A DNA stretch of 64,000 bases from an uncultured Kiritimatiellota bacterium. GTDB lineage: Bacteria > Verrucomicrobiota > Kiritimatiellia > RFP12 > DVOR01. This document shows, piece by piece, positions 18,236-39,546 of this stretch. Location: positions 81,929 to 145,928 of the forward strand of contig CALXSE010000002.1 of NCBI GenBank assembly GCA_944391085.1. The letters are read 5' to 3'. The notes beneath the pieces are model-generated. The model did not search any database. It was not told where the DNA came from and saw only the letters and a list, made by a program, of their open reading frames with translations. Position numbers and translations under genes: made by a program. Position 1 is the first letter of the stretch, and each line of letters begins with the position of its first letter.

Positions 18236-19360
18236 CTACCCTTCGATGGCGGCGCGCAGCCAGGCAAGCGATTCCTCACGGAAGGCCCCGAGCCGCTCCG
18301 CATAGCCGCCGGCGGGCTGAGCGAAACGCGCGGGGTCGCCCACGTGGAAATCGTCGGGGATGGGGACAGGGACGGCGTGGCGTTCGGCGCCGACGCGCCG
18401 CAGGAGGGCGCGCAGGCGGGAATCCTTGCGCGGGTCGGCCTCGGTGAGGGCGATGAAGGGCTTGCCGCTGTGGAGGGAGAAGACGGCGCCGTGGAAGGAG
18501 GAGGTCACGATAAAGGACGCGTTGAGGAAGAGGTCGACGAACTCATAGGGCGAGGCGGATTTGTTCACCGTGGCGCGCGGCTTGCCCAAGTCCTGCCTGC
18601 GGCCGTTGAGATAGACGACGTCGAGGTCGAGCGCGCGGGCCACTTCGTCGATGACGCGGTCGGCCTGCGGGTAGGGATTGACCATGTAGGCCATGATGTA
18701 GACGAGGATATAGGGGCGCTTGGGACGGCGCGTGGCCTTTTGCGCCATCGCGGCCCACTGGGCGCGCTCAAGGAGGAGCGTCGGGTCGCAGCACCAGGCG
18801 GCGGTCTGGCCGGTGAGGTCGCGGATGAGCGCGACGCCGCTTTCCTCGCGCACCGAAAGCGCGTCGTAATCCAGAAGCGCCTCACGGTAACGCGGCCGCA
18901 GCGCCTCCGGCAGCGCGGAGACGGCGAAGCTCGAGGCATAGGCGATCTTGCGCACGGCGGGGCGTCTATCCGCGGGGACGAAGGCGAGGAAGTAGGCCGG
19001 GTCCGCGCCGCTCCACTGCGGGTTGAAGGTCTGGTCGGATCCCGTCGCGTAGACATCCGCCGCGGGCGGGTCGGCGGCCAGCTCCGCGAAGGTGGCGTAG
19101 GGGCGCGTCAGGTCGAGCTCCGTGCGCAGGAAGTCGTCGTAGGCGCGGTCGCGGCGCCAATAGACCACGCGCCCAAGGAGATACCGCGCGAGGGCCGCCG
19201 GGCTGCGCGGGAACGTCCGTTCGCCGGCCTGCGCCACATAGTCGACGGTCAGGCAGCGGTGCCCCAACAGGCGCGTGACGGCCGTGTGCAGGGCGTAGGC
19301 CTGAAGCGCGGAGCCATAGTTGATGGTGCGGAACATGGTGATCTGGCAGACGGTTTTCAT
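18236..19360 (-). CDS. Polysaccharide pyruvyl transferase family protein
   Basis: NYGSALQAYAL, GSDQ, YASSF, SVRE, DPTLLL, TSSFHG; SD AAAGGAG before MKTVC. Confidence 0.9.
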   Translation of the reverse strand: MKTVCQITMFRTINYGSALQAYALHTAVTRLLGHRCLTVDYVAQAGERTFPRSPAALARYLLGRVVYWRRDRAYDDFLRTELDLTRPYATFAELAADPPAADVYATGSDQTFNPQWSGADPAYFLAFVPADRRPAVRKIAYASSFAVSALPEALRPRYREALLDYDALSVREESGVALIRDLTGQTAAWCCDPTLLLERAQWAAMAQKATRRPKRPYILVYIMAYMVNPYPQADRVIDEVARALDLDVVYLNGRRQDLGKPRATVNKSASPYEFVDLFLNASFIVTSSFHGAVFSLHSGKPFIALTEADPRKDSRLRALLRRVGAERHAVPVPIPDDFHVGDPARFAQPAGGYAERLGAFREESLAWLRAAIEG

Positions 19361-19371
19361 GGCATCTCCTT

Positions 19372-20532
19372 TCAGCGGCGGACAATCCTGCACAGGCGGG
19401 CCCAGGCGCACCCGATGAGCGACCAGCCATGCGCCAGGGTGAAGCCGGCCGGCCAATCGAGCAGGCGGATGAACGTGGCCCGTCCCCACGCGGGCGGTTC
19501 GGCCTTGGGCGTCTTCGCCTCGACCTCCGCGTTCTCGGCGGGCGTGAGCGGCTCGGTGACGCAGTGCGCGGCGGCCTTGGTCCACACCTCAAGGCCGCGC
19601 GCGGTGAGGGCCTCCACGCGGCTCACGCCCGTGTCGTTCGCCTGGTAACGCTCACCCCAGAAATCGCGCACGCGGATGTCCGCGCCGCTGTGCGTCCCCA
19701 CGAAGGGGCACGCGTAACACGTCAGATTCTGCGCCGTACAGCGAAGGAAATGGCGAAGAAAAGGTTCGTTTCCCGAGGCATATCCCCTATAAAATGTTTG
19801 TCTATCCTCGGAAAGGGTCAATTCATAGGCGTCCTGCCAGCCACGGGTTTTGCCGCGCCACGAGGCCTCGACCCGGCGTGGATCCCGCCCTTTGGCCGCC
19901 CGGCGCAGGAAGGCCGCCCAGAGCTTTTGGGAGGGCACGCCGTGGCAGACGAAGTCCACCAGGACGAACCGCTCCTCGACGCCGCGCGTTTGGATAAGGC
20001 GGCGGAAGGCGGCGATTTGGCAGGGCGTGCCCACGACAAGCCACTTGCCGTCACCCGCCAGGATGTAGCGAAAGGCGGGGACGGTCAGGCTTTGGATGTA
20101 TTTTGACCCCCGTGCCGGCACGAAGGCCTCCGGCGTCTCCGCCAGAAAGTGCTCCGCGCGTTGCCGCTCGGGCACATACCGCACGCCGCAGAAGCCGTAG
20201 CCCTCCCCCGCCAGGGCCGCGACGATGGCGCCGACCGCCCCGCCGGAGGAACTCGCGCGAAGGGAATCAGCGTCCTTCAGCCACGCCGCGTCCCCGCGCA
20301 GCACGCGCTTATGCAACGTCTCCGGCGGGATGGGCGAACGGGTCGGGCACAGGCGCACGCAGAGCCCGCACCCCACGCACGCGGCCGCGTCCACCCGCGG
20401 CACCCAGAACCCCTCGCGCGACTGCGCCATCTCGACGCACCGCCTCGGGCAAACCACGGCACACACACCACACCCGTAGCAAGGGTTCGTCCCCGCCACG
20501 GTCTCTCTTCCATCCACTTTCTCTCGGGCCAT
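19372..20532 (-). CDS. 4Fe-4S / F420 hydrogenase beta-subunit-like protein of polysaccharide loci
   Basis: CYGCGVCAVVCP, CVGCGLCVRLCP, SSSGG, GSKYIQS, GTPCQI, CHGVPS, CYAC; exact start uncertain. Confidence 0.88.
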   Translation of the reverse strand: MAREKVDGRETVAGTNPCYGCGVCAVVCPRRCVEMAQSREGFWVPRVDAAACVGCGLCVRLCPTRSPIPPETLHKRVLRGDAAWLKDADSLRASSSGGAVGAIVAALAGEGYGFCGVRYVPERQRAEHFLAETPEAFVPARGSKYIQSLTVPAFRYILAGDGKWLVVGTPCQIAAFRRLIQTRGVEERFVLVDFVCHGVPSQKLWAAFLRRAAKGRDPRRVEASWRGKTRGWQDAYELTLSEDRQTFYRGYASGNEPFLRHFLRCTAQNLTCYACPFVGTHSGADIRVRDFWGERYQANDTGVSRVEALTARGLEVWTKAAAHCVTEPLTPAENAEVEAKTPKAEPPAWGRATFIRLLDWPAGFTLAHGWSLIGCAWARLCRIVRR

Positions 20533-20740
20533 AAAAAGCACGCCTTTCCTGCTTCTATCTGTAACGAGGCCCTGAGAAAGCCCTACACCGGATAGCAGCG
20601 AAAAGGCGCGCCAGAATGGCGCACCTTGCTGGACTTTTGCCCGGTGCAATGAAATTTCTCAGGTTTCGTTACAGGCAACTGTCGCGCAAAGCGCAGTAAA
20701 ACGATGGCTCATCCCATCGCGTGCCCACATGATAGCAAAC
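20514..20740 (-). ncRNA. Candidate structured cis-regulatory leader RNA, copy A (includes -10 TGCTATCAT at 20729-20737)
   Basis: Homologous to 40033-40260; nested inverted repeats 20560-67/20666-73, 20571-79/20655-63, 20584-91/20641-48, 20605-13/20617-25 and 20538-43/20719-24. Confidence 0.7.
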
Positions 20741-20844
20741 CCCCGCCCCCAAAAGAAAGCCCCTACCCGCCCGTGACAGCCCGCTCCTCCCGATGGTCGG
20801 CAACGTGCCCAACGGGCACGCTACAAGACGACAGCGCGGCAACC

Positions 20845-20877
20845 AAAAAGGCCCCCGAATCAGGGGCCTGCGTGAAG
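20845..20877 (-). terminator. Intrinsic terminator, second of a duplicated pair after the beta-galactosidase gene
   Basis: ggcccc...ggggcc hairpin followed by U5 on the minus strand. Confidence 0.65.
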
Positions 20878-20997
20878 GGTTCGGCAAACGGGCGGCCAGC
20901 GGAGTTTAAGGGGCTGCTTGCTGAGAGTGGCCGCTGTAATCCGGCAAAGCATTTCCAGAAAGGCCGCTGGACGGCTTGTGACGGTGCCGGGGAAACG

Positions 20998-21030
20998 AAA
21001 AAGGCCCCCGGGAGGGGGCCTTGCGTGAAG
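20998..21030 (-). terminator. Intrinsic terminator of the beta-galactosidase gene
   Basis: aaggccccc-ggga-gggggcctt hairpin with a U tract on the minus strand. Confidence 0.75.
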
Positions 21031-21046
21031 AGAGGTGAAACGGGCG

Positions 21047-24000
21047 TCAGCGAAGCTTGAGGGTCAGCTCGCTGAGGGTGGCCCAGATGTGGCCTTTGAT
21101 GGCGGGGGCCTTGGCGGTGAGGCGGAGGTAACGCGCGTCGGTCGGGGCGAAGTCGATGTCGCGCCACTTGCGGTTGCCGGGGTTCCAGCCGGTGTCGCCG
21201 TCGAAGACGGTGGCCCAGGTCTTGCCGTCGGCGCTGAGCTCGATCTTGCATTTGCCGATGAGGCCGTTGAGCTCGTCGGCGCGGGGCAGGAGGCGGACGC
21301 CCACGACGGTCTGCACCTCGCCGAAGTCCAGCTCGAAGCTGTGCGGATAATCGGGGTGGACGTTGCGCCAGTCGGTGTGCCAGTAGGTCTTTGGGTTGCC
21401 GTCGAAGATGTTGGCGACGTTGCCTTCGCCGGGCTCTTCGGAGGAGACGTTCACGACCTTCCAGGCGGTGCGGACGGCCTCCTTGTCGAAGGTCCGGAAA
21501 AGGGGCGGGGTGGGAATCTGACCGCCGTCCGGGATGACGGTGACGGCGACGGTGCCGCTCTCCAGCGCGAAAGGCTTGTCGTAGATGAAGGGCTTTTGGC
21601 CGTTGACGGAGACCTGTACCTTGGCGTCGACGCGGTCAGGGGTGACGGTGACCTGGTTCTTGCCGTCACGCGTCACGAGGGCAAGGCCGGCGGTGGGGCG
21701 GAAAGGCTCCGGCTTGAAGGGCTTGGAGCCGAAGCGCATGGCGAAGCCAAAGGCGAAGGGCTTGTTGTAGACGAGGTGCTCGGCCCAGGGACGGGGGCCG
21801 CAGGAGCCGTTGCCCAGGCCGGTCTGGGCGTAGTCGAGGTGGATCCAGGTCTTGTCGGGCGTGGGCAGGAGGGAGGGGAGGGTGGCGTCGAAGAGGGTGA
21901 CGGCATCCCACTGGTTGACGGAGAAGGCGAAGGTGCGTTCCCAGACGGGAGAGAAGAAGCAGAGGGAGTCCTCGCCGTCCTCAAGGAAGAGCCAGCGGGC
22001 GTTCTCGCGGTTGCCGTATTCCTGGGTCTCGGGATAGGGCACGAAGAAATCCTCGACGGAACAGGTGAAGTGGTCGCGCCAGGTGTGGAACTTGCGGTCG
22101 ACGTAGTTCTCGAAGGGGCCGAGGGCGTCGTAGTGGACGGTGTTGAGATCCTTGCTGACGGCGAGCTCGAAGCCAAGGCGCGGGATGATTTCCTCGGGGG
22201 ACTGCGGATAGAAGACGCCCTCGCAGGTGACGGTGTTCATGAGGACCGTCCAGACGAGGGTGTATTTGTAGGGGACGTTGCCGCCGTCGGTCTCCATCTC
22301 GGCGAAAATCTGGACGGCCTCTTGGTCTCCCTCAATCTTGCGCCATTTCATGGAGAGGCAACGATTGCCCTGGGTCTTGAGAGAGCGCCAGGTGGCGGAG
22401 TCCTTGATGTAACGGTCGTTGTTGATGCGCGCGCGGTACATCGTGAAGCGGGGCGGGGCAGCGAGGAGGTCTTTGCCGTTGTAGCGGACCTGGGAGAGGA
22501 CGCCGTCCTTGAAGATCAGGTAGGAGCCGTCGACGCCCTTGGCGGAGACGCGGAGGGAGCCGTCGGGGTTTTGGGTGACCTCGACGGGGACCTCGGGGAG
22601 GTGATCCATGGATTTGGGCTTGGGGGGCTTGCAACCGGGGGCGGGGATGGCGAACCAGGCGACGCAGTCGGTGACGATGGCCTTGGGGTCAACGCCGGCG
22701 GCGCCGACGAAGACGGGGAAGTCGCAGTCGTAATTCTGGGTGGGCTTGAGCGGGAGCGTTGCGCTTTGGCCGGGCTTGAGCGCGGGAAGGTCGCAGAGGC
22801 GCGCGCCGTCCTGGCCATAGAGGGCGTAACCCTCGGCGGTCTTGTGGAAGAACTTGCTCGTGACGGTGAGGGCCTGCTTGGCGGGATCCCAGGCGAAGGC
22901 GAAGGGCTGCTGGGCCTGCTTGATGGCCCAGAACTGGCCTTTGGGCTTGTGGTCGGCGGTGATGACGCCGTTGTCGCAGAAGTCGCCGAAGTTGGGCCTG
23001 TCGCCGAAGAGGCCGCCGAAGGCGAGGGATTTGCCGGTGAAGGGCTGGAGCTTGAAGAGGCCGGTCTTGGGGTCTTTGGTGGCGCGGAGGCCCTGGTCGA
23101 TGAAGTCCCAGACGAAGCCGCCGATCATGCGGGGATACTGCTCGTAGATTTTGATGTATTCGTCGAACATGCCGCAGGCGTTGCCCATGGAATGGGCGTA
23201 CTCGACGTGGACGTAGGGGCGGTGGGTGTGGCGCTTGGCGACGGCGCGGAGCTGGTCGTGAGGGCGATACATGGAGGAATCCATGTCGTTGTGGGGGGAG
23301 TTCTCGGGGAAGTCGCAGTAGTGGACCAGGCGGGAGGGGTCGTTCTGCTTGAGCCAGTCGCCCTGGTCGGCGAGGTTTTTGCCGGGGCCGGTCTCGTTGC
23401 CGAGGGACCACATGATGATGGAGGGGTGGTTCTTGTCGCGCTGGAACATGTTTTGGACGCGGAAGGCGTAGGCGGCGTGCCAGGAGGGGACGTCGTTGAG
23501 GCACTGGCGGGTACCGCGGATCTGGTGGGCCTCGATGTTGGCCTCGTCCATGACGTAGATGCCGAGGCGGTCGCAGAGTTCGTACCAGCGCGGGTCGTTG
23601 GGGTAGTGGGCGGTGCGGACGGCGTTGAAGTTGCCCTTTTGGAGCCACTTGGCGTCGGCCTCCATCTTTTCCATGGTCATGGCACGGCCGCGGTCGGGAT
23701 CCATCTCGTGGCGGTTGACGCCCCACAGCTTGGTGGAGACGCCGTTGATGAGGAGCTCGCCCTGCTTGCCGACCTCGACGCGGCGGAAGCCGGTCTGGAA
23801 GGCGCGGGCGTCGCCGTTGGGGAGGGCGACGGTGACGGCGTAGAGGTTCGGCGTCTCGGCCGTCCAGCGGGCGACGTTGGGGACGGTGCCGGCGGGGAGG
23901 GGGAGCTTGACCTCCTCTCCGGCCTTGAGTGCGGGGACGGGGAGCTTGGCGGCGTAGACGTCGCCGATGGCGATGGAGACCTCGCTGGGGGAGGTGGGCT

Positions 24001-24778
24001 CGGCACCGGCGTTGCGGACCCAGACGTCGCCGGCGACGGTGCCGGTGGCGTAGTCGTCGGCAAGGCTCGGGCGCACCCAGACGTCGCGGATCTGGAGGGC
24101 GGGCGTGGAGAAGAGGCGGACGTCGCGGAAGATGCCGGAGAGGCGCCAGAAGTCCTGATCCTCGAGGTAGGAGCCGTCGCTCCAGCGGTAGACCTCGACC
24201 GAGAGGGTGTTCTCGCCGGGCTTGAGGGCCTTGGTGATGTCATACTCGCCGGCGGTGAAGGAGTCTTCGCCGTAGCCGATGTAGGTGTCGTTGACCCAGA
24301 GGTAGTAGGCGGATTCGACGCCGTCGAAGCGGACGTAGACCTTGCCTTTGTAGAAGTTTTCCGGCAGAGTGAAGGTGGTGCGGTAGGAGCCGACGGAGGG
24401 GCGCTCCGTGAAGCTGACCCAATCTTTGGGCGGCGTGGAGGTGACGCGCGGCGGGTCGATCTTGAAGGGATAGATCTCGTTGGAATAGATCGGGGTGCCG
24501 TAGCCGCCCATCTGCCAGCTCATCGGCACGTCAATCAAATCCCATTGCGAGACGTCGTAGGAGGTCTTCCAGAAGTCCTGCGGGCGCTCGGCGGGCGTGT
24601 TGGAAAAGCGGAAGCGCCACTTGCCGTTGAGGGAGATCACGCTGCTGGGCGCGGTGGGCATCAGGGCGGCGCGCGCCGGCTCGCGGTTCACCTGGAAGAC
24701 GGTCTCGTCCTCCCACTCCGGCGCGGCGAGCAGAGACCCCGCGCAAATGGCGGCCAACAGGGCAAAGCGTTTCCTCAT
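21047..24778 (-). CDS. lacZ: Exported GH2 beta-galactosidase (LacZ type) with C-terminal F5/8 type C (CBM32-like) domain
   Basis: Signal peptide; LEDQDFWRLSGIFRDV, GVNRHE, NAVRTAHYP, WSLGNE, EYAHSMGN, GGFVWDFIDQ; C-terminal FDGNPKTYWHT. Confidence 0.92.
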   Translation of the reverse strand: MRKRFALLAAICAGSLLAAPEWEDETVFQVNREPARAALMPTAPSSVISLNGKWRFRFSNTPAERPQDFWKTSYDVSQWDLIDVPMSWQMGGYGTPIYSNEIYPFKIDPPRVTSTPPKDWVSFTERPSVGSYRTTFTLPENFYKGKVYVRFDGVESAYYLWVNDTYIGYGEDSFTAGEYDITKALKPGENTLSVEVYRWSDGSYLEDQDFWRLSGIFRDVRLFSTPALQIRDVWVRPSLADDYATGTVAGDVWVRNAGAEPTSPSEVSIAIGDVYAAKLPVPALKAGEEVKLPLPAGTVPNVARWTAETPNLYAVTVALPNGDARAFQTGFRRVEVGKQGELLINGVSTKLWGVNRHEMDPDRGRAMTMEKMEADAKWLQKGNFNAVRTAHYPNDPRWYELCDRLGIYVMDEANIEAHQIRGTRQCLNDVPSWHAAYAFRVQNMFQRDKNHPSIIMWSLGNETGPGKNLADQGDWLKQNDPSRLVHYCDFPENSPHNDMDSSMYRPHDQLRAVAKRHTHRPYVHVEYAHSMGNACGMFDEYIKIYEQYPRMIGGFVWDFIDQGLRATKDPKTGLFKLQPFTGKSLAFGGLFGDRPNFGDFCDNGVITADHKPKGQFWAIKQAQQPFAFAWDPAKQALTVTSKFFHKTAEGYALYGQDGARLCDLPALKPGQSATLPLKPTQNYDCDFPVFVGAAGVDPKAIVTDCVAWFAIPAPGCKPPKPKSMDHLPEVPVEVTQNPDGSLRVSAKGVDGSYLIFKDGVLSQVRYNGKDLLAAPPRFTMYRARINNDRYIKDSATWRSLKTQGNRCLSMKWRKIEGDQEAVQIFAEMETDGGNVPYKYTLVWTVLMNTVTCEGVFYPQSPEEIIPRLGFELAVSKDLNTVHYDALGPFENYVDRKFHTWRDHFTCSVEDFFVPYPETQEYGNRENARWLFLEDGEDSLCFFSPVWERTFAFSVNQWDAVTLFDATLPSLLPTPDKTWIHLDYAQTGLGNGSCGPRPWAEHLVYNKPFAFGFAMRFGSKPFKPEPFRPTAGLALVTRDGKNQVTVTPDRVDAKVQVSVNGQKPFIYDKPFALESGTVAVTVIPDGGQIPTPPLFRTFDKEAVRTAWKVVNVSSEEPGEGNVANIFDGNPKTYWHTDWRNVHPDYPHSFELDFGEVQTVVGVRLLPRADELNGLIGKCKIELSADGKTWATVFDGDTGWNPGNRKWRDIDFAPTDARYLRLTAKAPAIKGHIWATLSELTLKLR

Positions 24779-24899
24779 GGTATGCTCCTTAATTACAGGC
24801 ATAAGATAACACAACCGCGCCTGCGGCGCCACCCCGGCCCCTCCCGGCGCGTACCGCAGGACGCACCCGTGCCCGAACCGTGAAGCGTGCCCGGAAGTG

Positions 24900-24908
24900 T
24901 GGTACAAT
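24900..24908 (+). promoter_or_regulatory. Extended -10 promoter TGGTACAAT, leaderless arrangement
   Basis: 6 nt before the ATG at 24915; no SD. Confidence 0.6.
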
Positions 24909-24914
24909 CGGGCC

Positions 24915-27071
24915 ATGAAGAAGGGAACGTTGCTCATCGTGGGCGCGCTGTGCGCCTCAACGCTGTTCGCCGCCGGCGCGGGGGGGGGCTCCGCGAGCCT
25001 GACGCACCGCATGATGACGCTGGCCATCCAGCTGGGCATCATCCTTTTCGCGGCGCGGATGGGCAACATCCTCTTCACGTGGTTGCGCCTGCCCAGCGTG
25101 CTGGGCGAGCTGTGCGCGGGCATCGTCATCGGCCCTTACGCCATGGGCGCGCTGTGGCCCGGGTGGGTCTTCCAGGTCTTTGAGCTGGCGCCCGGCGTGG
25201 CCTCGCCGGTCGGCGTCTCGCCGGAGCTCTACGGCCTCTGTTCGGTGGCCTCGATCGTCCTGCTCTTCCTCGTCGGCGCGGAGACGGATCTGCGGATGTT
25301 CATGCGCTATTCGGCCGTCGGGTCGCTCGTGGGCGTGGGCGGCGTGCTCTTCTCCTACCTGGCCGGCGCGACGATCGGCGTCTGGCTGCTGGGGCTCTCG
25401 TGGAGCGACCCCACGACCATCCTGCTGGGGGTGATGTGCACGGCCACCTCCGTCTCCATCACCGCGCGCATCCTCTCGGACAAGCGCAAGCTCGATTCCC
25501 AGGAAGGCGTCACCATCCTCGCCGGCGCGGTCATCGACGACGTGCTGGGCATCATCCTGCTGGCCATCGGCATGGGCCTGATCAACGCCCAGCAGAGCGG
25601 CGAGACCTTCTCATGGGCCGGCATCCTCGGCATCACCGCCAAATGTTTCGGCATCTGGCTGGGCGCGACGGTGGTGGGCATCCTCGTCTCGCGGCGCGTG
25701 GCCTGGCTCCTGCGCTTCTGCGGCTCGCACGGCGAGGTGGCCATCCTCACCCTGGGGGTGGCGCTCCTGGTGGGCGGGCTCTTTGAGCAGGCCAGCCTGG
25801 CGATGATCATCGGCGCCTACGTCACGGGCCTCTCCTTCTCGCGCACGGACATGGGCGTGATGATTCAGGAGAAACTCCACGGCGTCTACCAATTCCTCGT
25901 CCCGGTCTTCTTCGTCGTCATGGGCATGATGGTCAACGTCACCGAGTTCGCCAAGGAGGGCGTCCTCTTCGCCGGCCTCGTCTACACCGCCGTCGCCGTC
26001 CTGGCCAAGGTCATCGGCTGCGGCCTGCCCACCCTGTTCTTCGGGTTTACCCCCGTGGGCGCCCTGCGCGTGGGCCTGGGCATGGTGCCGCGCGGCGAGG
26101 TGGCCCTGATCATCGCCGGCATCGCCGCCGCCCACGGCCACGTCGAGATCCTGGGCGTCGCCGTCCTCATGACGATGCTCACCACCCTCGTCTCCCCCAC
26201 CCTCCTCCTCGCGGCCTTCCGCATCAAGGCCCCCGGCCACCGGAAGACCGCCGACGGCGAGGGCCTCCCGGCCGCCGTCTACACCTTCCCCAACCACGCC
26301 ATCACCAACGCCGTCATGGGCAACATCCTGCGCAACCTCTCCAAGGAAGGCTTCTTCACCCACCAGATCGACCCCACCCAGGGCCTCTACCAGGCCCGCC
26401 GCGACGACACCACCCTCAACATCGTCTGCGGCGACCTCACCGTCTCCTTCACCGCCGCCCATGAGGCCCTTCCCTTCGTGCGCATCGTCATGGCCGAATC
26501 CCTCGCCGAGTTCGAAAGCGTCCTCGAGGCCCTGCGCAAACCCATCGCCGAAAGCGCCCACATCGGCATCGCCGCCACCGCCACGCCAAAGCCCCCGGCC
26601 AAGACCCCAGGCCGCCTCGACATCCTCGCCCGCCACATCCGCGAGGACGCGATCGTCCACCGCCTCCAGGCCACCGACCGGGACGCCATCATCCACGAGC
26701 TCATCCTCCGCCTCCGCGACCTCGGCGCCATCTCCGACGTCGACTCCGCCGAACGCGAGGTTCTCCAACGCGAGCGCGTCATGTCCACCGGCGTCGGCTT
26801 CGGCGTCGCCTGCCCCCACGCCCGCACCAACGCCGTCAACGCCCTCGTCTGCGCCATCGGCGTCACGCAACGCCCCGTCGACTTTTCCGCCGACGAGGAG
26901 GGCCGCGCCTGCCGCATCGTCATCCTCACCCTCACCCCAGACACCGTCAACAGCCCCTACATGACCTTCATCACCGCCGTCCTCACCGCCCTGCGCGCCC
27001 CCGCCAAACGCGAGGCCCTCCTCCAGGCGCCGGACGCCGCCGCCATCCGCAAGGCCCTTCTCACCCCATGA
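24915..27071 (+). CDS. CPA2 cation:proton antiporter fused to a C-terminal PTS EIIA (Ntr/Fru-type) domain
   Basis: ATSVSIT, GAVIDDVLG, GMVPRGEVAL; C-terminal RERVMSTGVGFGVACPHAR. Confidence 0.9.
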   Translation: MKKGTLLIVGALCASTLFAAGAGGGSASLTHRMMTLAIQLGIILFAARMGNILFTWLRLPSVLGELCAGIVIGPYAMGALWPGWVFQVFELAPGVASPVGVSPELYGLCSVASIVLLFLVGAETDLRMFMRYSAVGSLVGVGGVLFSYLAGATIGVWLLGLSWSDPTTILLGVMCTATSVSITARILSDKRKLDSQEGVTILAGAVIDDVLGIILLAIGMGLINAQQSGETFSWAGILGITAKCFGIWLGATVVGILVSRRVAWLLRFCGSHGEVAILTLGVALLVGGLFEQASLAMIIGAYVTGLSFSRTDMGVMIQEKLHGVYQFLVPVFFVVMGMMVNVTEFAKEGVLFAGLVYTAVAVLAKVIGCGLPTLFFGFTPVGALRVGLGMVPRGEVALIIAGIAAAHGHVEILGVAVLMTMLTTLVSPTLLLAAFRIKAPGHRKTADGEGLPAAVYTFPNHAITNAVMGNILRNLSKEGFFTHQIDPTQGLYQARRDDTTLNIVCGDLTVSFTAAHEALPFVRIVMAESLAEFESVLEALRKPIAESAHIGIAATATPKPPAKTPGRLDILARHIREDAIVHRLQATDRDAIIHELILRLRDLGAISDVDSAEREVLQRERVMSTGVGFGVACPHARTNAVNALVCAIGVTQRPVDFSADEEGRACRIVILTLTPDTVNSPYMTFITAVLTALRAPAKREALLQAPDAAAIRKALLTP

Positions 27072-28039
27072 GCATAAGTGCCAAGCATCTCCTCGCCCAC
27101 GCCGCACTCGCCCTCCTCCTCGCCCCAGCCTGGGCCGCGGAAGGCCGTGGCCGCTATCAGCCCATCATCGACGCCGAACCCTTCGGCCCCCTGTCCGCGG
27201 CCCCCCTCGGCACGGAGGCCGGGCAGCTCCCCGCCGCCACGCCGGAGGAAATCCGCGAGGAATCCAACAAGATCCAGCTGTGCGCCATGACCGTCACCCC
27301 GGACGGGCGCACAGCCGTCGGGCTCATCGACAACGGCGTCACCCCCCCCGCCTACATCACCCTCTTCGACGGCGACCAGGCCAACGGCCTCGAACTCCTC
27401 CTCTCCGACCTTGACCGGGAGTATGCCACCTTCCGCCGCGACGGCATCACCTTCACCCTCGGCCTCGGCCTCGGCCTGCTCGAGACCATTACCCCGGATC
27501 TTCTCGCCCAACGCGAGGCACAGGCCGCCGAAGAGGAGGCCGCCCAGGCCGAACGCCAACGCAAGGCCGCCAACTCCCTTGCCGAGCAGCTCATCGCCAT
27601 GCAGCTGAGCCTCCCCCCGGACGTCGAGGCCCCCCCGCTCCCCATCCCCACCGGGGACGCCGCCTCCTTCACCCGGAAGTTCGACCCGGACAAAGCACGT
27701 CCCGCGCCGGAGACCGACACCGAGGCCCTCATCCAGGCCGGCGTCGATGAACTCAACGAGGCCGTCGCCGCAGGCGAAAGCCCGCAGGATTACCTCAAAC
27801 GCCTCGTCGAATCCCGCCAGCGCGAAGTCGAACGCCAGCAGGCCGAGAAGCAGGCCGCGCAGGCCGCCCTTGACCAGGAGCTCGCCGTCGGCGGGCTTTC
27901 CGAATCCGCCGCCGACTATCTCCGCCGGCGCACCAACATCGAGCTCATGAAAAAAGGCGTCGTCCCCCTCACCCCCGTCAACGACCTCTCCGACGCCGAG
28001 CGCGCCGAGATCGACGCCGCCCTCCAATCCCTCGATTGA
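27068..28039 (+). CDS. Hypothetical exported protein with coiled-coil segments
   Basis: Signal peptide ending AWA; ATGA overlap with the upstream gene; host codon usage. Confidence 0.75.
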   Translation: MSISAKHLLAHAALALLLAPAWAAEGRGRYQPIIDAEPFGPLSAAPLGTEAGQLPAATPEEIREESNKIQLCAMTVTPDGRTAVGLIDNGVTPPAYITLFDGDQANGLELLLSDLDREYATFRRDGITFTLGLGLGLLETITPDLLAQREAQAAEEEAAQAERQRKAANSLAEQLIAMQLSLPPDVEAPPLPIPTGDAASFTRKFDPDKARPAPETDTEALIQAGVDELNEAVAAGESPQDYLKRLVESRQREVERQQAEKQAAQAALDQELAVGGLSESAADYLRRRTNIELMKKGVVPLTPVNDLSDAERAEIDAALQSLD

Positions 28040-28055
28040 CGCCTCGCCCGCCGCC

Positions 28056-28712
28056 ATGCCCGCCACCCTCCGCCGTATCCCCAAGACCGTTTGGCTCCTG
28101 CTGGCCGTGGGCGCGCTCATCCTTGTTCCCTTCGTCCTCTTCGGCGAGCCCATCGAAGCCTGGTTCAACGCCATCTCGGCCCCGGAAGCCGGCACCCGGC
28201 GCGCCCTGCTGGGCTGGGCCCTCTTCGGCCTGCTTGCCCTCGACGTCCTCCTCCCCATCCCCAGCAGCCTCGCCAGCACCCTCTGCGGCATCGTCTTCGG
28301 CCTCTGGGGCGGCTTCTGGATTTCCTTCGCCGCCATGACCGTCAGCGCCGCGCTGGGGTACGCGCTCGGAGTGCTCTGCGCCGACTGGGCCAGGCGCGCC
28401 ATCGGCGAACGCGAGAACGCGCTCCTCCACGCCTTCCTCCAACGCTACGGCACGCCGGTTCTTATCGCCCTGCGCACCGTCCCCGTCCTTGCCGAGGCCT
28501 CCACCCTCTTCGCCGGCATCGGGCGCCTTTCCCCCTGCCGCGCCGCCTGGCCCCTGCTTCTCGGCAACGCCGTCGTCTCGCTCATCTACGCCTGGGTCGG
28601 GGCCCTCGGGCACTCCGCCGACGCGATGATCCCGGCCTTCCTCGGCTCCCTGGCGCTCTCCGCCCTCCTGCTCCTCGCCGCGCGGCTCCTCCGCCCCCGC
28701 CCCGCCCCCTGA
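28056..28712 (+). CDS. DedA/VTT (SNARE-associated) membrane protein
   Basis: LPIPSS...[18 protein letters not shown]; multiple TM segments. Confidence 0.82.
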
Positions 28713-28842
28713 GCCTTCCCCAAAGCAAACGGCCCGGCGCTTCCCGGGCGGGTTCGCCGCGAGAGCCTTCGAGGACGTGCGCGGGGCGCCGGGATGTGCT
28801 ATACTACCAATGCTTTCAACCCACAACAGGGAAGGACTGAAG

Positions 28843-30093
28843 ATGAACAAGAAGACATTGCGTGACGTGGACCTCGCCGGCAAGCGCGTGGTCATGCGCG
28901 TGGATTTCAACGTGCCCATGAAGGACGGCGTGATCAAGGACGACACCCGCATCCAGGGCGCCCTCGGTTCCATCAAGTACGTGCTCGACAACGGCGGCTC
29001 CCTCGTCCTCATGAGCCACCTGGGCCGCCCGAAGGGCAAGGGATACGAGCCCGAGTTCTCGCTCAAGCCCGTGGCCGAGTATCTTGCCAAGTGCCTGGGC
29101 AAGCCCGTCGCCTTCGCGCCAGACTGCCTCAAGGCCGCCGAGCAGGCCGCCGCGCTCAAGCCCGGCGAAGTGCTCATGCTTGAGAACACCCGCTTCTACA
29201 AGGAAGAGACCGCCAAGGTCAAGAAGACCGACGACATGACCGATGAGCAGTACAAGGCCGCCAAGGCCGAGCTCAAGGCCAAGTGCGAGGAAATGGCCAA
29301 GGTGCTCGCCTCCTACGGCGACATTTACTGCAACGACGCCTTCGGCGCCGCCCACCGCGCCCACGCCTCCACCGCCGTCATCGCCAAGTACGCCCCCGTC
29401 GCCGTCTCCGGCTTCCTGCTGGAGAAGGAGATCCAGTACCTTGGCTCCGCGGTCGAGAACCCCGTGCGCCCCTTCGTCGCCATCCTCGGCGGCGCCAAGG
29501 TCTCCGACAAGCTGGCCGTGGTCAAGAACCTGCTCACCAAGGTCGACACGCTCATCATCGGCGGCGGCATGGCCTACACCTTCCTCAAGGCGCAGGGCAA
29601 GCACATCGGCAACTCCCTCTGCGAAGACGACCAGCTGGGATATGCCAACGACATGCTCGCCCTGGCCAAGGAGCGCGGCGTGAAGTTCCTCCTGCCCGTG
29701 GACAACGTCGCGGCCGACAAGTTCGATCCCGAGGCCAACACCCAGATCGTCACCGAGATCCCCGAGGGCTGGATGGGCCTGGACATCGGCCCCGCCTCCG
29801 TCAAGTGCTTCACCGAGGCCCTCCAGGGCGCCAAGACCGTCGTCTGGAACGGCCCCATGGGCTGCTTCGAGATGCCCGCCTTCTCCAAGGGCACCTTCGG
29901 CGTCTGCGAGGCCGTCGCCCAGGTCAAGGCCAACGGCGGCATCTCCATCATCGGCGGCGGTGACTCCGTCAGCGCCGTGAAGAAATCCGGCCTGGCCGAC
30001 AAGATGAGCCACATCTCCACCGGCGGCGGCGCCTCCCTCGAATACCTCGAAGGCAAGGTGCTTCCCGGCGTCGCGGCGCTCTCCGACAAGTAA
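28843..30093 (+). CDS. pgk: Phosphoglycerate kinase
   Basis: [51 protein letters not shown]; -10 TGCTATACT at 28797-28805. Confidence 0.98.
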
Positions 30094-30107
30094 GCGCCAC
30101 CCGCGCA

Positions 30108-30145
30108 AAGACGAAGGCCCCGGCAACCGCCGGGGCCTTCGTCTT
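30108..30145. terminator. Hairpin terminator between convergent pgk and the HTH gene
   Basis: 17-bp perfect inverted repeat aagacgaaggccccggc/gccggggccttcgtctt. Confidence 0.75.
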
Positions 30146-30161
30146 GCCGTTGGCGAACCGC

Positions 30162-31184
30162 TCATTTCCCAAAGTAAGGCGCATCCAACGGGGCGACCGG
30201 GCGCGGCTCGAAAGTCTCGGCGGCAAGGGGCGCCTCCGGCTCGGCCTCCGCAGAGAGGCGGAAGACATAACGGAAGACCAGCACCAAGAGCGTCAGGGCG
30301 ACAAGCGCGCTGGCCACGGCCAACATTTGCAGGATGGCCTGCTTGGAGAGAAGCGGCTCGGAAGCGCCCCCGCCCATGCGCCGGACCTTGGGCAACGTCA
30401 GACGCTTGAAGAGTGCCGCAAGGCCGGAGACGAGGGAGGTCGCGGCCTCCTTGAGCGAGCTCAGCTGAGGGCTGGGCGGGTCGGGCACGGGATGCTGCGG
30501 GCCAAAGATGGCGCGCTCGGTGGCGGACCGCAGCGGCATAGGCCGCGTAAGGGGGGACGAGCCAAGATCCGCAAGGGCCGCACGCCCGGTGACGTTGATG
30601 CGTTTCTTGCGCGAAACGGGAGGCTCCTCGTCCACCTGCCTGGGCGAAGGGGGCGGAGGCGGTTCGGGAAGGTCGTCGCCGGAAAGGGTAAAGGGTGGCT
30701 CGTCGGGCGGCTCAGTGGGCGGGGTGCGCTCGACGGCATCGGCGCGGGTGGGGGCGACGCCGGGGAGCACCTCGGGCTTGGGAACGGCGGTGAAAGTGGC
30801 CTCCGCGGGCTCAACGAGCTTGTGGACGGAAGGGGCGCGCGGCGCGGCGTCCGGGTCAGGCGGAAGCGTCCTGCGGCCGCCGGTATGGATGGGCTCCGGG
30901 GGGCGGGCGGGGAGATCGTGGACGGCGGGGCGGGTGACGGCGGGACGGGTCTTGCCCGCGCAGATGGCGTCGTACTCGTCGAGGAGGGGCTGGGGGTCAA
31001 GCTCAAGGAGGGCGCAATATTGGCGGATGAAGCCGCGGCCATAGACAGGGGCGGGGATGCGCTTGAAGTTCTCGGTCTCGAGGGCCTCGATGACACGGGT
31101 CATAAGGTGGGTGCGCTCGGCGACGTACTGCATGGTCCAGCCGTGCGCGAGGCGCTTTTGCTTGAGAATCTCACCGAGTGCCAT
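30162..31184 (-). CDS. RodZ-like XRE HTH protein with C-terminal TM helix
   Basis: LGEILKQKR...IEALE...PVYGRGFIRQYC; Pro-rich linker; late TM helix; follows ftsK. Confidence 0.8.
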   Translation of the reverse strand: MALGEILKQKRLAHGWTMQYVAERTHLMTRVIEALETENFKRIPAPVYGRGFIRQYCALLELDPQPLLDEYDAICAGKTRPAVTRPAVHDLPARPPEPIHTGGRRTLPPDPDAAPRAPSVHKLVEPAEATFTAVPKPEVLPGVAPTRADAVERTPPTEPPDEPPFTLSGDDLPEPPPPPSPRQVDEEPPVSRKKRINVTGRAALADLGSSPLTRPMPLRSATERAIFGPQHPVPDPPSPQLSSLKEAATSLVSGLAALFKRLTLPKVRRMGGGASEPLLSKQAILQMLAVASALVALTLLVLVFRYVFRLSAEAEPEAPLAAETFEPRPVAPLDAPYFGK

Positions 31185-33903: not shown

Positions 33904-33906
33904 GGG

Positions 33907-34326
33907 TCACTCGCTTTCGGTGACGAGGGAGAACTTGGCGAGCCCGGCATGGCGGAGGATGCGGATGACCTCCATGATCTTGCCATAGCTTTGCGCCTCG
34001 TCGCCACGGATATGGGCGGCGGCGTTCGGGTCCGCGGCGACGCGGGCGCGGACGCGCTCGGCCAACGTGGACTCGTCCACCGGATCATCGTCCAAAAAGA
34101 CGGCGCCGTCCGCCCGGATGGTCACGGCGATGGGCTCGACGGTCGGGAGCGGGTCGCCAGAGGCGGTGGGCAAACGCACGGCCACGCCGTTCTGCAACGC
34201 GGGGAAGGTGATGATGAAGGCGATCAGAAGCAGGAAGGTCATGTCGAGAATCGGCGTCATGTCGATGTTCCCGTTGAGCTTCCTGCGGGCGCGCGCCCTG
34301 GAACGGTTGAGCCTCCGGCGCAGCAC
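33907..34326 (-). CDS. ExbD/TolR family protein
   Basis: IDMTPILDMTFLLLIAFIIT, IRGD. Confidence 0.9.
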   Translation of the reverse strand: MLRRRLNRSRARARRKLNGNIDMTPILDMTFLLLIAFIITFPALQNGVAVRLPTASGDPLPTVEPIAVTIRADGAVFLDDDPVDESTLAERVRARVAADPNAAAHIRGDEAQSYGKIMEVIRILRHAGLAKFSLVTESE

Positions 34327-34329
34327 CCC

Positions 34330-35061
34330 TCAGCCCTCCGTTGAACGATATTGCAGCGTCAGCTTGCCCATGAGCTCCTCGGCGAAGCCCTCCATCTGGA
34401 CGGTGTAGGCCTCGACCTTGGATTGCAGGACGTTGTAGAAGATGGTGGAGGGGATCGCCACCACCAGCCCCACCACCGTCGTCAGCAAGGCCGACGAGAT
34501 GCCCGGGGCAAGCTCGGCGATGTTGGCGCTGCCGCTGGCGGCCATGGCCTGGAAGGCCAACATGACCCCCCACACCGTGCCGAACAGCCCCAGGAGCGGC
34601 GCGGACGAGGTGATGACCGCGAGCGCCGTCATCCCCCGGCCCAGCCCGACCGTCTCCTCGTCGGTCGCGTGGGCGCAGGTGCTCTCCACCAGCTCCATCC
34701 GCGCGGCGTCAAGGCGCAACGGCGTGCTCGGGTCGCTGCGCAGGAGCACGCGCAGACGTTCGGGGATCAGGTCGGCCAGGCGCGCGCAGGTCTTGACGTA
34801 CACATTCTCCATCGGTGTGTCGGTGAACGGATAGCGGTCGTAGTAAAGCGCCAGCGGGTCGTCCTTCCGCACGAAGTCGTCCACGAAGCGCGCCGAGCGC
34901 CGCACCAGGTCGCGCAGATGGAGCACGCGCCCGGCCATCACCGCCCATGACGCCACGCTCATCCCGATCTGCACCAGCACAATCAGCTGGCCGCAGAGGT
35001 CGGAGTCGAAGAAGGCCTTGATCGGCCCGGTGGTCATCGCCGCCAAGAACAGCCCGTCCAT
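34330..35061 (-). CDS. MotA/TolQ/ExbB proton channel family protein
   Basis: APLLGLFGTVWGVM, APGISSALLTTVVGLVVAIPS; ATG overlaps the argS stop. Confidence 0.92.
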   Translation of the reverse strand: MDGLFLAAMTTGPIKAFFDSDLCGQLIVLVQIGMSVASWAVMAGRVLHLRDLVRRSARFVDDFVRKDDPLALYYDRYPFTDTPMENVYVKTCARLADLIPERLRVLLRSDPSTPLRLDAARMELVESTCAHATDEETVGLGRGMTALAVITSSAPLLGLFGTVWGVMLAFQAMAASGSANIAELAPGISSALLTTVVGLVVAIPSTIFYNVLQSKVEAYTVQMEGFAEELMGKLTLQYRSTEG

Positions 35062-36770: not shown

Positions 36771-36897
36771 CGGAAGACTCCTTGCTCTAGCTCCAAACTG
36801 CCCCAAAATTGTACCACAATCTCCCCCACCCCGCGCCAAAGCGTTTGAAGCAGGGAGGCCCGCCATGGGGCGAAGCTGGAAAGCCCCTGGCGAGGCG

Positions 36898-38631: not shown

Positions 38632-39546
38632 TTACTTTTCCTCCTTGACGAGATAAAGGGGACGATGTTTGCTCTCCAAATAGGTCTTGGCAAGGTAAGT
38701 TCCCAAGATGCCGATGACAAAAAGTTGAAAGCCTCCCAAAAAGAGGATGAGGCAGATTTGAGTGGGATATCCCGAGACCGGTTCACCCACGACAAGCGTC
38801 TTGAAGATGACATACACCAGATAAACCAGTGCCGCCACACAGGCCGTTATCCCTGAGACGGAGGCCAGTTGCAGGGGAGCCGTAGAGAAAGCGGAGAGGC
38901 CTTGGACACTGTAGCGCACCAGTCCCCAAAAAGACCATTTCGTCTCACCTGCCGCACGCGCGACGTTCTCAAACTCCAACCACTTTGTCCGGAAGCCGAC
39001 CCAGGCATAAATACCCTTGGTGAAGCGATTGACCTCCGGCAAAGCAAGCACCGCCTCCACGACCTGCCGCTTCATCATGCGATAATCCGTCTCCCCGCCG
39101 CGCATACGCACCTCGGAGAATCGGTTAAGCACGCCGTAAAAGGCCTTGGCGCATTGGCTTCGCAACCATGGCTCGCCCTTGCGGTTCGTGCGTCGCGCCG
39201 CCACACAATCCCACTCGCCGAATTGCAGCAAGCGCACCATTTCGGGCAACAGCGCCACAGGGTGCTGCAAATCCACGTCCAACGTCACCACAAGATCGCC
39301 CGTCGTCTTGCGCAAACCGGCCAAAAGGGCGGACTCTTTGCCAAAGTTGCGGGAGAAGGAGACATAGTGAACGGTTGCATCCTCTCGTGCCAACTCTCGC
39401 AATGCCGCCAATGTCCCATCCGACGAGCCATCGTCCACAAAGATGAACTCCAGCCCAAGAGGCAGGCCAAGAGCCTGAACCGCCTCCCAAAAACGGCGTA
39501 CACACAGCGATTCGTTAAAACACGGCACAACCAACGACAACGTCAT
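38632..39546 (-). CDS. GT2 polyprenol-phosphate glycosyltransferase (GtrB-like)
   Basis: VVPCFNE, VDDGSSD, SRNFGKE, DVDLQHP, RFTKG; two C-terminal TMs. Confidence 0.92.
   Translation of the reverse strand: MTLSLVVPCFNESLCVRRFWEAVQALGLPLGLEFIFVDDGSSDGTLAALRELAREDATVHYVSFSRNFGKESALLAGLRKTTGDLVVTLDVDLQHPVALLPEMVRLLQFGEWDCVAARRTNRKGEPWLRSQCAKAFYGVLNRFSEVRMRGGETDYRMMKRQVVEAVLALPEVNRFTKGIYAWVGFRTKWLEFENVARAAGETKWSFWGLVRYSVQGLSAFSTAPLQLASVSGITACVAALVYLVYVIFKTLVVGEPVSGYPTQICLILFLGGFQLFVIGILGTYLAKTYLESKHRPLYLVKEEK

Follow-up and report, generated by a model that had tools for sequence, protein, structure and literature searches.

Attenuators of the trp type and those of PyrR-controlled pyr operons are placed between a promoter and its first gene and operate through four strands: strands 3 and 4 form a G+C-rich helix followed by a U-tract, pairing of strands 2 and 3 precludes that helix, and pairing of strands 1 and 2 precludes 2:3 in turn. 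A leader RNA with the same layout occurs twice in the DNA analysed here, a 64,000-nucleotide stretch of contig CALXSE010000002.1 from an uncultured Kiritimatiellota bacterium ("the window"). Both copies lie on the minus strand—copy A at 20514-20740 and copy B at 40033-40260—and they belong to a large, apparently undescribed family of leader RNAs of ~195 bases (~185-200 nt) in gut Kiritimatiellia and their relatives. Judging from sequence, we read the element as a promoter-proximal, cis-acting four-strand attenuation switch (1:2 / 2:3 / 3:4) in the 5' leader of the mRNA, with a probability of roughly 0.7. It would represent a new family of a known kind, namely a terminator/antiterminator leader of unusual architecture that is wide-ranging in Verrucomicrobiota and, with termination as its predicted output, a candidate switch.

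The comparison with described systems brings out several differences. Unlike in the trp and pyr attenuators, no leader peptide or start codon is seen on strand 1; the 2:3 helix forms the far end of a 25-bp rod (P4-P6), the strands of which serve as loops in 1:2 and 3:4; and up to 34 copies per genome stand before unrelated genes, with no similarity to any Rfam leader. GEMM (c-di-GMP-I) and T-box RNAs likewise come in many copies per genome and provide a terminator/antiterminator platform in cis, and GEMM controls surface and extracellular functions; the present element differs from both in its architecture (a rod plus 1:2 and 3:4), in having no Rfam match and in residing in a genome where no GGDEF domain was found. 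The EAR, JUMPstart/ops-RfaH and LoaP/UpxY leaders also head glycan or accessory operons and act on elongation or termination, whereas our element matches none of the available models, has its own terminator alternative, occurs alongside one NusG-family gene and also precedes single genes, e.g., those for PEP-CTERM proteins and DNA methylases. The invertible promoters of gut Bacteroidota share its cargo of surface-protein, glycan-modification and restriction-modification genes; here, however, the promoter lies outside the repeats, the pairing is RNA-like and strand-specific with respect to G.U, and no inverted form was seen. Finally, Correia, ERIC and REP/BIME elements and miniature inverted-repeat transposable elements (MITEs) resemble it as dispersed intergenic copies with long hairpins, some of them with promoters, but lack its fixed orientation and distance to the gene, covarying stems, conserved intervening bases, alternative folds, conservation at orthologous sites and phylum-level range.

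Architecture and alternative folds of the leader

The alignment of copies A and B with their flanks has a mean column identity of 81% over 287 columns, and its single-base indels indicate that the stretch is non-coding. Both copies are strongly structured, with folding energies of -92.9 kcal/mol for copy A (z = -5.7) and -93.9 kcal/mol for copy B (z = -6.3) that none of 200 dinucleotide shuffles equalled in either case, and 9 of the 51 pairs in their two-sequence consensus are altered on both sides. A preliminary description, made from the letters of the window, had proposed this homology together with compensatory changes, an extended -10 element at the start and an ending of the form GCGUGCUUUUU-AUG, and all four proposals held up at the positions given (ATG at 20530-20532 in copy A and 40047-40049 in copy B). 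Its count of two copies, on the other hand, was far too low. The genome that carries the window, a Kiritimatiellaeota metagenome-assembled genome (MAG) of 1.73 Mb in 30 contigs (88.9% complete, 69% G+C), yielded some 20 places to a BLAST search with copy A, and iterated nhmmer searches extended these to 29 full-length copies and one fragment, dispersed over 20 contigs. The covariance model R1 (six nested helices, 193 positions, 43 pairs) recovers exactly these 29, with E <= 2.2e-24; the best IUPAC patterns for the core motif capture no more than 13-17 of them. The parts of the two copies in the window, all on the minus strand, are as follows.

Copy A
20729-20737: extended -10 element TGCTATCAT, recognised by sequence; predicted transcription start at ~20722-20726
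20701-20720: P2 hairpin GCGAUGG/CCAUCGU with loop GAUGAG, supported by covariation
20675-20695: strand 1, made up of the P3 hairpin GCGC-UUU-GCGC and GACAGUUGC; partner of strand 2 in fold B according to the cognate-duplex test
20641-20674: 5' strands of P4 (CUGUAACGA), P5 (CCUGAGAAA) and P6 (UGCACCGG), with near-invariant GAAA and UUU(C) between them, from consensus and covariation
20618-20640: strand 2, GCAAAAGUCCAGCAAGGUGCGCC; partner of strand 3 (P7, fold A) or strand 1 (fold B)
20593-20612: strand 3, GGCGCGCCUUUUCGCUGCUA, comprising the 3' strand of P7 and a pyrimidine-rich anti-Shine-Dalgarno (anti-SD) stretch; partner of strand 2 or of the tail, the duplex with the tail having 19 pairs and -26.8 kcal/mol
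20559-20591: 3' strands of P6 (CCGGUGUA), P5 (UUUCUCAGG) and P4 (UCGUUACAG), with near-invariant GG and CC between them
20538-20558: strand 4, the 3' tail AUAGAAGCAGGAAAGGCGUGC and 3' strand of P8; Shine-Dalgarno sequence (SD) AGGAAAGG at 20543-20550
20533-20537: U-tract UUUUU, directly adjoining P8 on one side and the start codon on the other

Copy B
40249-40257: extended -10 element TGTTATCAT; predicted transcription start at ~40242-40246
40220-40239: P2 hairpin GCGAAGG/CCUUUGC
40191-40213: strand 1, made up of the P3 hairpin GCGC-UUUU-GCGC and AACAGGUUGC; the 1:2 helix is seen in the fold with P8 forced, and the fold of the nascent transcript has 18 pairs of 1:2
40159-40190: 5' strands of P4 (UCCAAACGA), P5 (CCUAGGA) and P6 (UGAACGA)
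40135-40158: strand 2, GCAACGUGUUGAGCGGGGCGCGCC
40109-40128: strand 3, GGCGCGCUUUCUUGCACGUA, the 3' strand of P7 with the anti-SD; duplex with the tail of 19 pairs and -28.3 kcal/mol
40075-40107: 3' strands of P6 (UCGUUCA), P5 (UCCUAGG) and P4 (UCGUUUGGA)
40050-40073: strand 4, UACGUGAAAGGAAGCGUGC, with the U-tract; SD at 40060-40067, U-tract at 40050-40054

Fold A is a rod of P4, P5, P6 and P7, as the preliminary description had drawn it. In alignment A3, built with MAFFT from the 29 copies of this genome, 25 of the 31 pairs predicted by RNAalifold show double changes. Alignment A6, with 100 sequences aligned to R1, was fitted to fold A and hence favours it; on this alignment, 93.2% of the cells in the six helices are paired (64.5% in shuffles), each of the 43 pairs has changes on both sides, and the covariation score of 0.724 compares with 0.216 in shuffled alignments, none of 500 reaching it, and with 0.07-0.14 for slid partners. 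The P2 hairpin (helix 1) has 95.5% of its cells paired and double changes in all 7 pairs; it is peripheral, being variable or missing in distant family members. Moreover, G.U pairs outnumber A.C combinations in the fold-A helices of A3 (104:41) and of the model-fitted alignments A4 (92:11) and A5 (128:54), an excess which implies that pairing takes place on this strand—that is, in RNA rather than in DNA.

The bases that are at least 90% invariant throughout the class sit between the helices: GAAA after P4, UUU after P5, GG before P5' and CC after P5'. Together with the covariation, they bear out the earlier observation of varying stems with conserved loop bases. These bases could form a binding pocket; they can also be accounted for without a ligand, as positions that do double duty with different partners in the two folds. 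GAAA and UUUC can form a 4-bp hairpin stem in 92-97% of the sequences, one position of which shows A-U exchanged for G-C, and in fold B this stem would make a small hairpin presenting the P5 strand as a loop. The closing stem that had been drawn next to the SD (GCACGC/GCGUGC) did not stand: it can be drawn in copy A as well as in copy B, and its cognate duplexes (-5.8 kcal/mol) hardly differ from non-cognate ones (-5.3 kcal/mol), the cognate partner being better in 65 of 103 cases, as in controls. Without a cognate advantage, this stem (P1, 5' GGCACGC with 3' GCGUGC) was rejected in favour of P8, and the 3' GCGUGC covaries instead with the 3' strand of the apical hairpin, where the cognate partner is better in 103 of 104 copies.

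Fold B combines the 1:2 helix with pairing of strand 3 and the 3' tail (P8). A scan of A3 for further helices revealed both components, as a 14-column helix of the 3' strand of P7 and the following pyrimidines with the 3' tail, and a 10-column helix of the P3 region with the 5' strand of P7. We also tested the pairings without an alignment, by cutting 104 distinct copies into strands 1-4 and rod halves and comparing RNAduplex energies with the copy's own partner and with the partners of other copies. The own partner was better in 98 of 104 copies for 1:2 (mean -18.9 against -13.9 kcal/mol), in 97 for 2:3 (-22.2 against -16.2 kcal/mol), in 103 for 3:4 (-26.2 against -17.0 kcal/mol) and in all 104 for the rod (-31.7 against -12.4 kcal/mol), whereas the control pairings 1:4, 1:3 and 2:4 gave 43, 50 and 60 of 104, respectively. 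On A6, an alignment not fitted to fold B, the 25 fold-B pairs are paired in 80.4% of cells against 74.3% in shuffles, a percentage inflated by the choice of these columns according to pairing frequency. Double changes occupy 241 cells (100 in shuffles), and the fold-B score of 0.366 compares with 0.270 in shuffles (0 of 500 reach it) and 0.09-0.13 in slid controls; such shuffle statistics overstate independence, the sequences being kin and many of them paralogues of one genome.

On paper, the two folds are mutually exclusive, given that strand 2 would pair with either 1 or 3, and strand 3 with either 2 or 4. In addition, the rod strands would turn into the loops of 1:2 and 3:4, and the full rod is probably incompatible with either helix on steric grounds. 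Covarying and exclusive 1:2, 2:3 and 3:4 helices are, as far as sequence comparison can tell, the layout of an attenuator. A putative pseudoknot of GACAGGUUGC and GCAACGUGU, considered as a tertiary contact of the rod, was rejected and is probably better read as part of the 1:2 helix, because such a contact would presumably tie together both ends of one strand of the 25-bp rod.

Promoter, putative terminator and predicted switching

A TANNNT hexamer lies 2-3 nt upstream of the model start in 28 of the 29 copies of this genome; 25 of the 29 also show a TG extension, and 10 have a -35 element that agrees in 4 or more of 6 positions. The conserved spacing of the -10 element marks the promoter as part of the conserved unit and would place the RNA start within the first few model positions; a simple promoter scan calls the promoter of neither copy A nor copy B, the -35 elements being weak. 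Upstream of copy A, one further feature was found.

20849-20869, minus strand: intrinsic-terminator-like hairpin (9-pair stem, 7 of them G-C pairs) followed by TTTTT, at the end of the upstream unit

As this hairpin would end the preceding unit, leader A probably opens a new transcription unit.

The element also has a constant orientation towards its gene. Of 107 hits with sufficient flank, 77 have the longer downstream open frame on the strand of the element, 25 have it on the other strand and 5 are tied; among the 55 hits in DNA with a G+C content below 0.60, where frame length is informative, the downstream frame is on the same strand in 51 and on the opposite strand in 4, the upstream neighbours of such hits being mixed (32 same, 20 opposite). 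The leader is retained before an 83%-identical FrhB-like gene in another Kiritimatiellaeota MAG; a homologue of 34% identity from an Oscillospiraceae MAG is not preceded by it. In 13 of the 29 copies, the start codon falls within ~5 nt of the U-tract and the SD inside P8. The leader thus lies between the predicted transcription start and the first gene, on the strand of that gene.

The position of the element also bears on the idea of a free-standing gene for a trans-acting small RNA, equipped with its own promoter and terminator and situated upstream of other genes by chance. A 5' promoter and a 3' terminator-like helix with a U-tract would suit such a gene, as would the 34-270 nt to the next open reading frame (ORF) in members from other classes, the similarly distant ORFs of the PEP-CTERM subgroup, and a copy at C9:62934-63125 that has no usual cargo and is followed by infA. 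Against this stand the 51 of 55 informative hits that aim at the downstream gene, the 13 copies with start codon and SD tied to the U-tract and P8, and the two exclusive covarying folds, which are typical of attenuators; furthermore, 29 diverged paralogues of a trans-acting RNA in a 1.7-Mb genome would, to our knowledge, be without precedent. We consider an independent small RNA gene quite unlikely, while a terminated leader could serve secondarily as a small RNA.

Orientation is also relevant to the proposal that the copies are repeats at the DNA level, either MITE-like mobile elements or invertible segments for phase variation. The many dispersed copies, arms that amount to a long inverted repeat, and assemblies that break or turn chimeric at the copies (a loose end at 20566, other copies near contig ends) would agree with it, and the cargo comprises classic phase-variable gene classes, the same that lie behind invertible promoters in gut Bacteroides. 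Yet pairing is strand-specific, with G.U far above A.C, the stems vary by compensation with fixed bases in between, and the orientation is fixed. The sole candidate for a terminal inverted repeat is the closing stem, which does not covary (target-site duplications were not searched for); no match to the element was found in plasmid and phage collections, and it is present at an orthologous site in another species. As for an inverton, the promoter is 5' of every inverted-repeat pair, where inversion is unable to switch it, and no strand change appears in the 15 joints shown from the contigs of four sequencing runs, 40 further joints lying outside those shown. A DNA-level repeat accordingly strikes us as highly improbable, and the MITE named as an alternative in the preliminary description can be set aside on grounds of orientation, the lack of a supported terminal inverted repeat and conservation at the orthologous site.

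The 3' end resembles a terminator. P8 is a G+C-rich helix of 16-20 bp in the proposed switch, with 3:4 duplexes of 11-20 pairs across copies that average -26 kcal/mol, and in 90 of 100 family members at least 4 T occur within the 8 nt following its 3' strand. Members from other classes mostly have a run of 6-8 U, from which 34-270 nt lead to the start of the next ORF; any SD that can be seen there belongs to that ORF itself. Likewise, the ORFs behind the 14 PEP-CTERM copies of this genome start ~55-235 nt past the U-tract, and P8 and the U-tract are retained nonetheless; their retention where the ORF is distant suggests that the output is, in general, termination. The SD of copies A and B and their subgroup is the purine stretch of the tail, and the AUG comes within ~5 nt of the U-tract; formation of P8 would thus stop transcription and hide the SD at the same time. 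A predicted terminator of its own also bears on whether the element is a processive antitermination RNA of the EAR or phage put kind, a folded leader that would stay on the polymerase and carry it through terminators and Rho sites in genes that are long, foreign or poorly translated. Accessory cargo with long repeat-protein genes (frames above 800 aa), glycan operons and restriction-modification genes would suit such an RNA, as would its place directly after the promoter in a genome that has no NusG paralogue as a partner. However, a covarying alternative fold that builds a terminator is neither needed nor explained by processive antitermination, and the EAR and JUMPstart models do not match; we deem this mechanism improbable.

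Returning to the four-strand switch, the two folds suggest how it would work. In fold A, the 2:3 helix (P7) would sit at the tip of a long rod above P4-P5-P6, leaving the 3' tail free, with no terminator and an open SD. In fold B, strands 1 and 2 would pair, and strand 3 would then take the tail into P8, with the U-tract following at once; P8 and U-tract would constitute the terminator, which in copies A and B and their subgroup would also bury the SD just before the AUG. During transcription, 1:2 is predicted to form first and the rod would have to displace it before the tail is synthesised. Timely displacement would decide between read-through and termination, since a 1:2 helix surviving until the tail emerges would allow 3:4 to form at the U-tract. 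This order of folding—1:2 first, the rod before the tail—suggests a kinetic switch that could be influenced at this stage by a ligand, by a protein or through the speed of the polymerase; candidates for the input comprise small molecules and RNA-binding proteins as well as temperature and the rate of RNA polymerase. We infer real termination, SD occlusion, the transcription start and the input that sets the balance.

Energy calculations with ViennaRNA on the 29 copies of this genome agree with the predicted order. Before strand 3 is made, the minimum free energy (MFE) fold of the nascent RNA has a 1:2 helix in 26 of 29 copies, with no fewer than 8 pairs and mostly 15-19; before strand 4 is made, it is the rod in all 29. 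At full length, 23 copies have the rod as their MFE fold and 5 have fold B, with 10 or more pairs in P8. Imposing P8 raises the folding energy by a mean of 7.5 kcal/mol, with no penalty in 6 of the 29 copies. Several points weigh against the attenuation switch, apart from the choice of fold-B columns and the kinship of the sequences mentioned above. The nearest-neighbour model prefers fold A in those 23 of 29 copies, and fold B may be transient or dependent on a factor. Additionally, P8 closes a loop of ~35-45 nt, atypical of intrinsic terminators, a simple scan for terminators detects none where copy A or copy B ends, and the cargo genes share no metabolic theme from which a ligand might be guessed.

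Three RNA runs and one DNA run cover positions 20400-40399; these are assembled contigs with even cover over all genes, uninformative on starts, stops and inversion. Several strain-level differences emerge from the contigs of public runs, with single-base indels within leader A at 20667, 20673, 20677 and 20700 and, in one DNA run, an additional base in the copy B U-tract (40049). One contig from an RNA run is a chimera whose junction at 20566 connects leader A with the tail of another copy, that at C1:64770 of this genome. Public assemblies break or turn chimeric at the leaders, and many copies are located no more than a few hundred bases from a contig end (e.g., C24:131 and C6:178 in this genome, and G023:C30:127 and G008:C90:80 in others).

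Around copy B, a 578-codon open frame (39543-41279, minus strand) spans the leader and its promoter, the GtrA start really being the ATG at 40047-40049. Such long frames are spurious in a genome of 69% G+C, and gene callers may annotate them and thereby mask the leader. A nine-base homopolymer at 40312-40320 (G9 on the minus strand, C9 on the plus strand) lies in the divergent intergenic region ~55 nt upstream of the copy B -10 element, near a promoter-like site on the plus strand (40366-40395), and could be prone to slippage.

Distribution, cargo and candidate inputs

To establish how far the family extends, R1 was run on samples of genomes, many of them incomplete, in which a miss does not equal an absence. 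With E <= 1e-3, matches were obtained in 29 of 41 near relatives (22 of 24 within the genus; at most 34 copies in any one genome), in 99 of 151 genomes and 26 of 42 genera of the order, and in 46 of 151 genomes and 27 of 88 genera of the class. With E <= 1e-4, 38 of 151 genomes of the phylum sample matched, including 12 carriers labelled as other classes (8 of 24 genomes in family f57, 3 of 14 in f64 and 1 of 15 in f63). The public runs that contain the stretch are gut metagenomes of chickens or other birds.

The family lies outside Rfam. No match was found with Rfam 15 at gathering thresholds across the window—neither to c-di-GMP-I/II, c-di-AMP, cobalamin, T-box, EAR or JUMPstart nor to Acido-Lenti-1. 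In permissive mode, the best sub-threshold match of copy A was a microRNA model at E = 0.53, and among 12 loci across the phylum only a tRNA matched. The motifs of two surveys by Weinberg et al. are reportedly in Rfam. Result listings and the opening lines of abstracts on riboswitches and structured RNAs in Kiritimatiellia, Lentisphaerae and Verrucomicrobia, or connected with PEP-CTERM/exosortase or restriction-modification, mention no such RNA. The preliminary description, which had suggested both the Rfam comparison and the covariance-model search of this and related genomes, was right in kind about an undescribed regulatory leader: the element is structured, sits between promoter and gene, and has covarying stems and alternative folds. 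A regulatory role is likely, given the position between promoter and gene and the alternative terminator/antiterminator folds.

The genes behind the two copies in the window are those named at the outset, here confirmed with Pfam.

18236-20532, minus strand: cargo of copy A, with an FrhB/FdhB-like 4Fe-4S protein (ATG at 20530-20532, stop at 19372) and a polysaccharide pyruvyl transferase (18236-19585)
36898-40049, minus strand: cargo of copy B, with a GtrA-like protein (ATG at 40047-40049, stop at 39543), a GT2 glycosyltransferase (38632-39579) and a DUF6056 membrane protein (36898-38631)

Genome-wide, PEP-CTERM genes follow 14 of the 29 copies, glycan loci 7, restriction-modification loci 3 and others the remaining 5.

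14 copies: PEP-CTERM protein genes, 12 above the Pfam PEP-CTERM cut-off, one cut by a contig end and one found only in the genome-wide scan
7 copies: glycan loci, with GtrA+GT2; GtrA/GT2/DUF6056; FrhB+pyruvyl transferase; two Acyl_transf_3; GT8; and GT4
3 copies: restriction-modification loci, with an EcoRI-type methylase and GmrSD/HNH; an Eco57I/MmeI-like methylase; and a Type ISP enzyme
3 copies: paralogous membrane proteins without a family, sharing the motif FGGRCxAW
1 copy: unknown protein of 419 aa
1 copy: no usual cargo, infA next

This genome has 30 PEP-CTERM motif matches and one exosortase, and 13 of the 30 matches follow a same-strand leader at a distance of 595-916 nt. In relatives, the products of 87 ORFs behind 78 hits include secreted repeat proteins (PEP-CTERM, LRR_5, Flg_new, TSP3_bac, RCC1, lectin-like/peptidase C1/fn3, BACON, F5/8 type C), glycan enzymes (GT4, GT2, GtrA, DUF6056, MBOAT, FGE-sulfatase) and DNA methylases or restriction enzymes (EcoRI-type, HsdM-type, Eco57I, Mrr/ResIII, C5 and D12 methylases, GmrSD). 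Behind the 12 copies examined in other classes, genes for Sel1-repeat proteins, GmrSD, an M48 peptidase and a DUF1559 protein were seen. The suggestion that the leader co-regulates glycan decoration therefore survives in part: the link to glycan loci is real (7 of 29), but it is not specific, with 14 PEP-CTERM and 3 restriction-modification copies beside it. The common denominator of the cargo is the variable surface and defence repertoire.

One special case of the attenuation switch would be a true riboswitch, in which a small molecule or ion binds one of the folds, e.g., at the GAAA/UUU/GG/CC bases near P5. A complex fold conserved across the class and beyond, few nucleotides of at least 90% invariance outside the fold-A helices, and a variable expression platform—the SD inside P8 in one subgroup, a separate SD 34-270 nt downstream in others—would fit this notion, as would the lack of a matching Rfam class and the up to 34 copies per genome, GEMM and T-box RNAs also being multi-copy. 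Conversely, PEP-CTERM and repeat proteins, glycan enzymes and restriction-modification systems have no metabolite in common, no transporter or biosynthesis gene stands behind any of the 29 + 78 + 12 copies examined, and the invariant bases can be explained by their different pairing in the two folds (GAAA:UUUC, 92-97%). The surface and biofilm messenger c-di-GMP is an unlikely ligand, as GGDEF (PF00990) had no match in this 88.9%-complete genome (the positive control matched in 8 of 14 genomes). Direct ligand binding is a tentative proposal.

Another possibility, which we view with comparable reserve, is that a dedicated RNA-binding protein stabilises 1:2 or the rod and makes one regulon of the dispersed genes. 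PyrR acts at anti-antiterminators, and Bgl/Sac-type and ANTAR proteins act at antiterminators; the layout of strands 1-4 is that of protein-controlled attenuators, the regulon is unified by cell biology rather than by metabolism, and the GAAA:UUUC hairpin with its P5-strand loop would be a plausible protein site. The searches of this genome, however, offer no candidate: NusG (PF02357) had a single match, with no paralogue of the RfaH/LoaP/UpxY type, CsrA (PF02599) had no match (its positive control matched in 3 genomes), and the search for ANTAR was uninformative, being without a match while its positive control was silent everywhere too. Nor was a conserved neighbouring regulator gene seen, the copies being spread over 20 contigs.

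Kiritimatiellia are common yet barely studied bacteria of guts and sediments, whose gene regulation is almost unknown. One RNA element marks ~29 promoters in this 1.7-Mb genome, and it links exosortase cargo, glycan decoration and restriction-modification, i.e., the face that the cell turns to phages, hosts and neighbours. Among candidate structured RNAs, a large and well-covarying orphan switch with a testable 1:2/2:3/3:4 mechanism is rare. The leader might represent an unrecognised class of RNA switches, widespread in Kiritimatiellia and extending to one or more further classes of Verrucomicrobiota, that couples a cellular signal—a ligand or a kinetically sensed cue—to variable surface and DNA defence as a genome-wide regulon of up to ~30 units per 2-Mb genome, a proposition we put forward only tentatively; if true, exosortase cargo and restriction-modification genes would gain their first riboswitch-like controller, and identifying its input would open up regulation in the phylum. 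In practical terms, the covariance model can serve to mark, in MAGs, where transcription units for surface and defence functions begin, and the element explains both the assembly breaks at these sites and the false long ORFs drawn by gene callers.

In the PEP-CTERM subgroup, the U-tract is followed by a second conserved piece of ~110-150 nt, which nhmmer located solely behind leaders. At its end is a hairpin in which a CCCGCCCC stretch is paired with GGGGCGGGAAGGAG, and the latter is the SD of the PEP-CTERM gene. The piece occurs behind the leaders at C19:30430, C10:56163, C24:131, C1:38322, C20:6229, C11:29669 and C9:62934, and its 3' half also at C4:84884, C12:10335, C13:59838 and C7:23385. 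One of these leaders is an orphan (C9:62934-63125, L044), with the second piece and no PEP-CTERM ORF; the next recognisable gene, ~250 nt further on, we take to be that of initiation factor IF-1 (infA), reading its peptide by eye.

Other copies have unusual genes downstream. Behind the leader at C7:61821-62009 (L041), the Acyl_transf_3 gene shifts frame ~20 codons past the AUG relative to its paralogue behind C1:83091-83285, either as a broken gene or through an assembly error. The leaders at C9:17005, C6:178 and C26:2638 (L030, L039 and L051) drive paralogous membrane proteins with an N-terminal FGGRC(S/A)AW motif and no significant Pfam or NCBIfam family; the paralogue at C9 is split into 63 + 543 codons. 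Finally, a Type ISP restriction-modification frame of 1592 codons (1321 aa scanned) starts 36 nt past the leader on C6, downstream of 21445 (L038), and combines Mrr_cat_2, ResIII, helicase C, ISP coupler, Eco57I methylase and ISP C-terminal domains.

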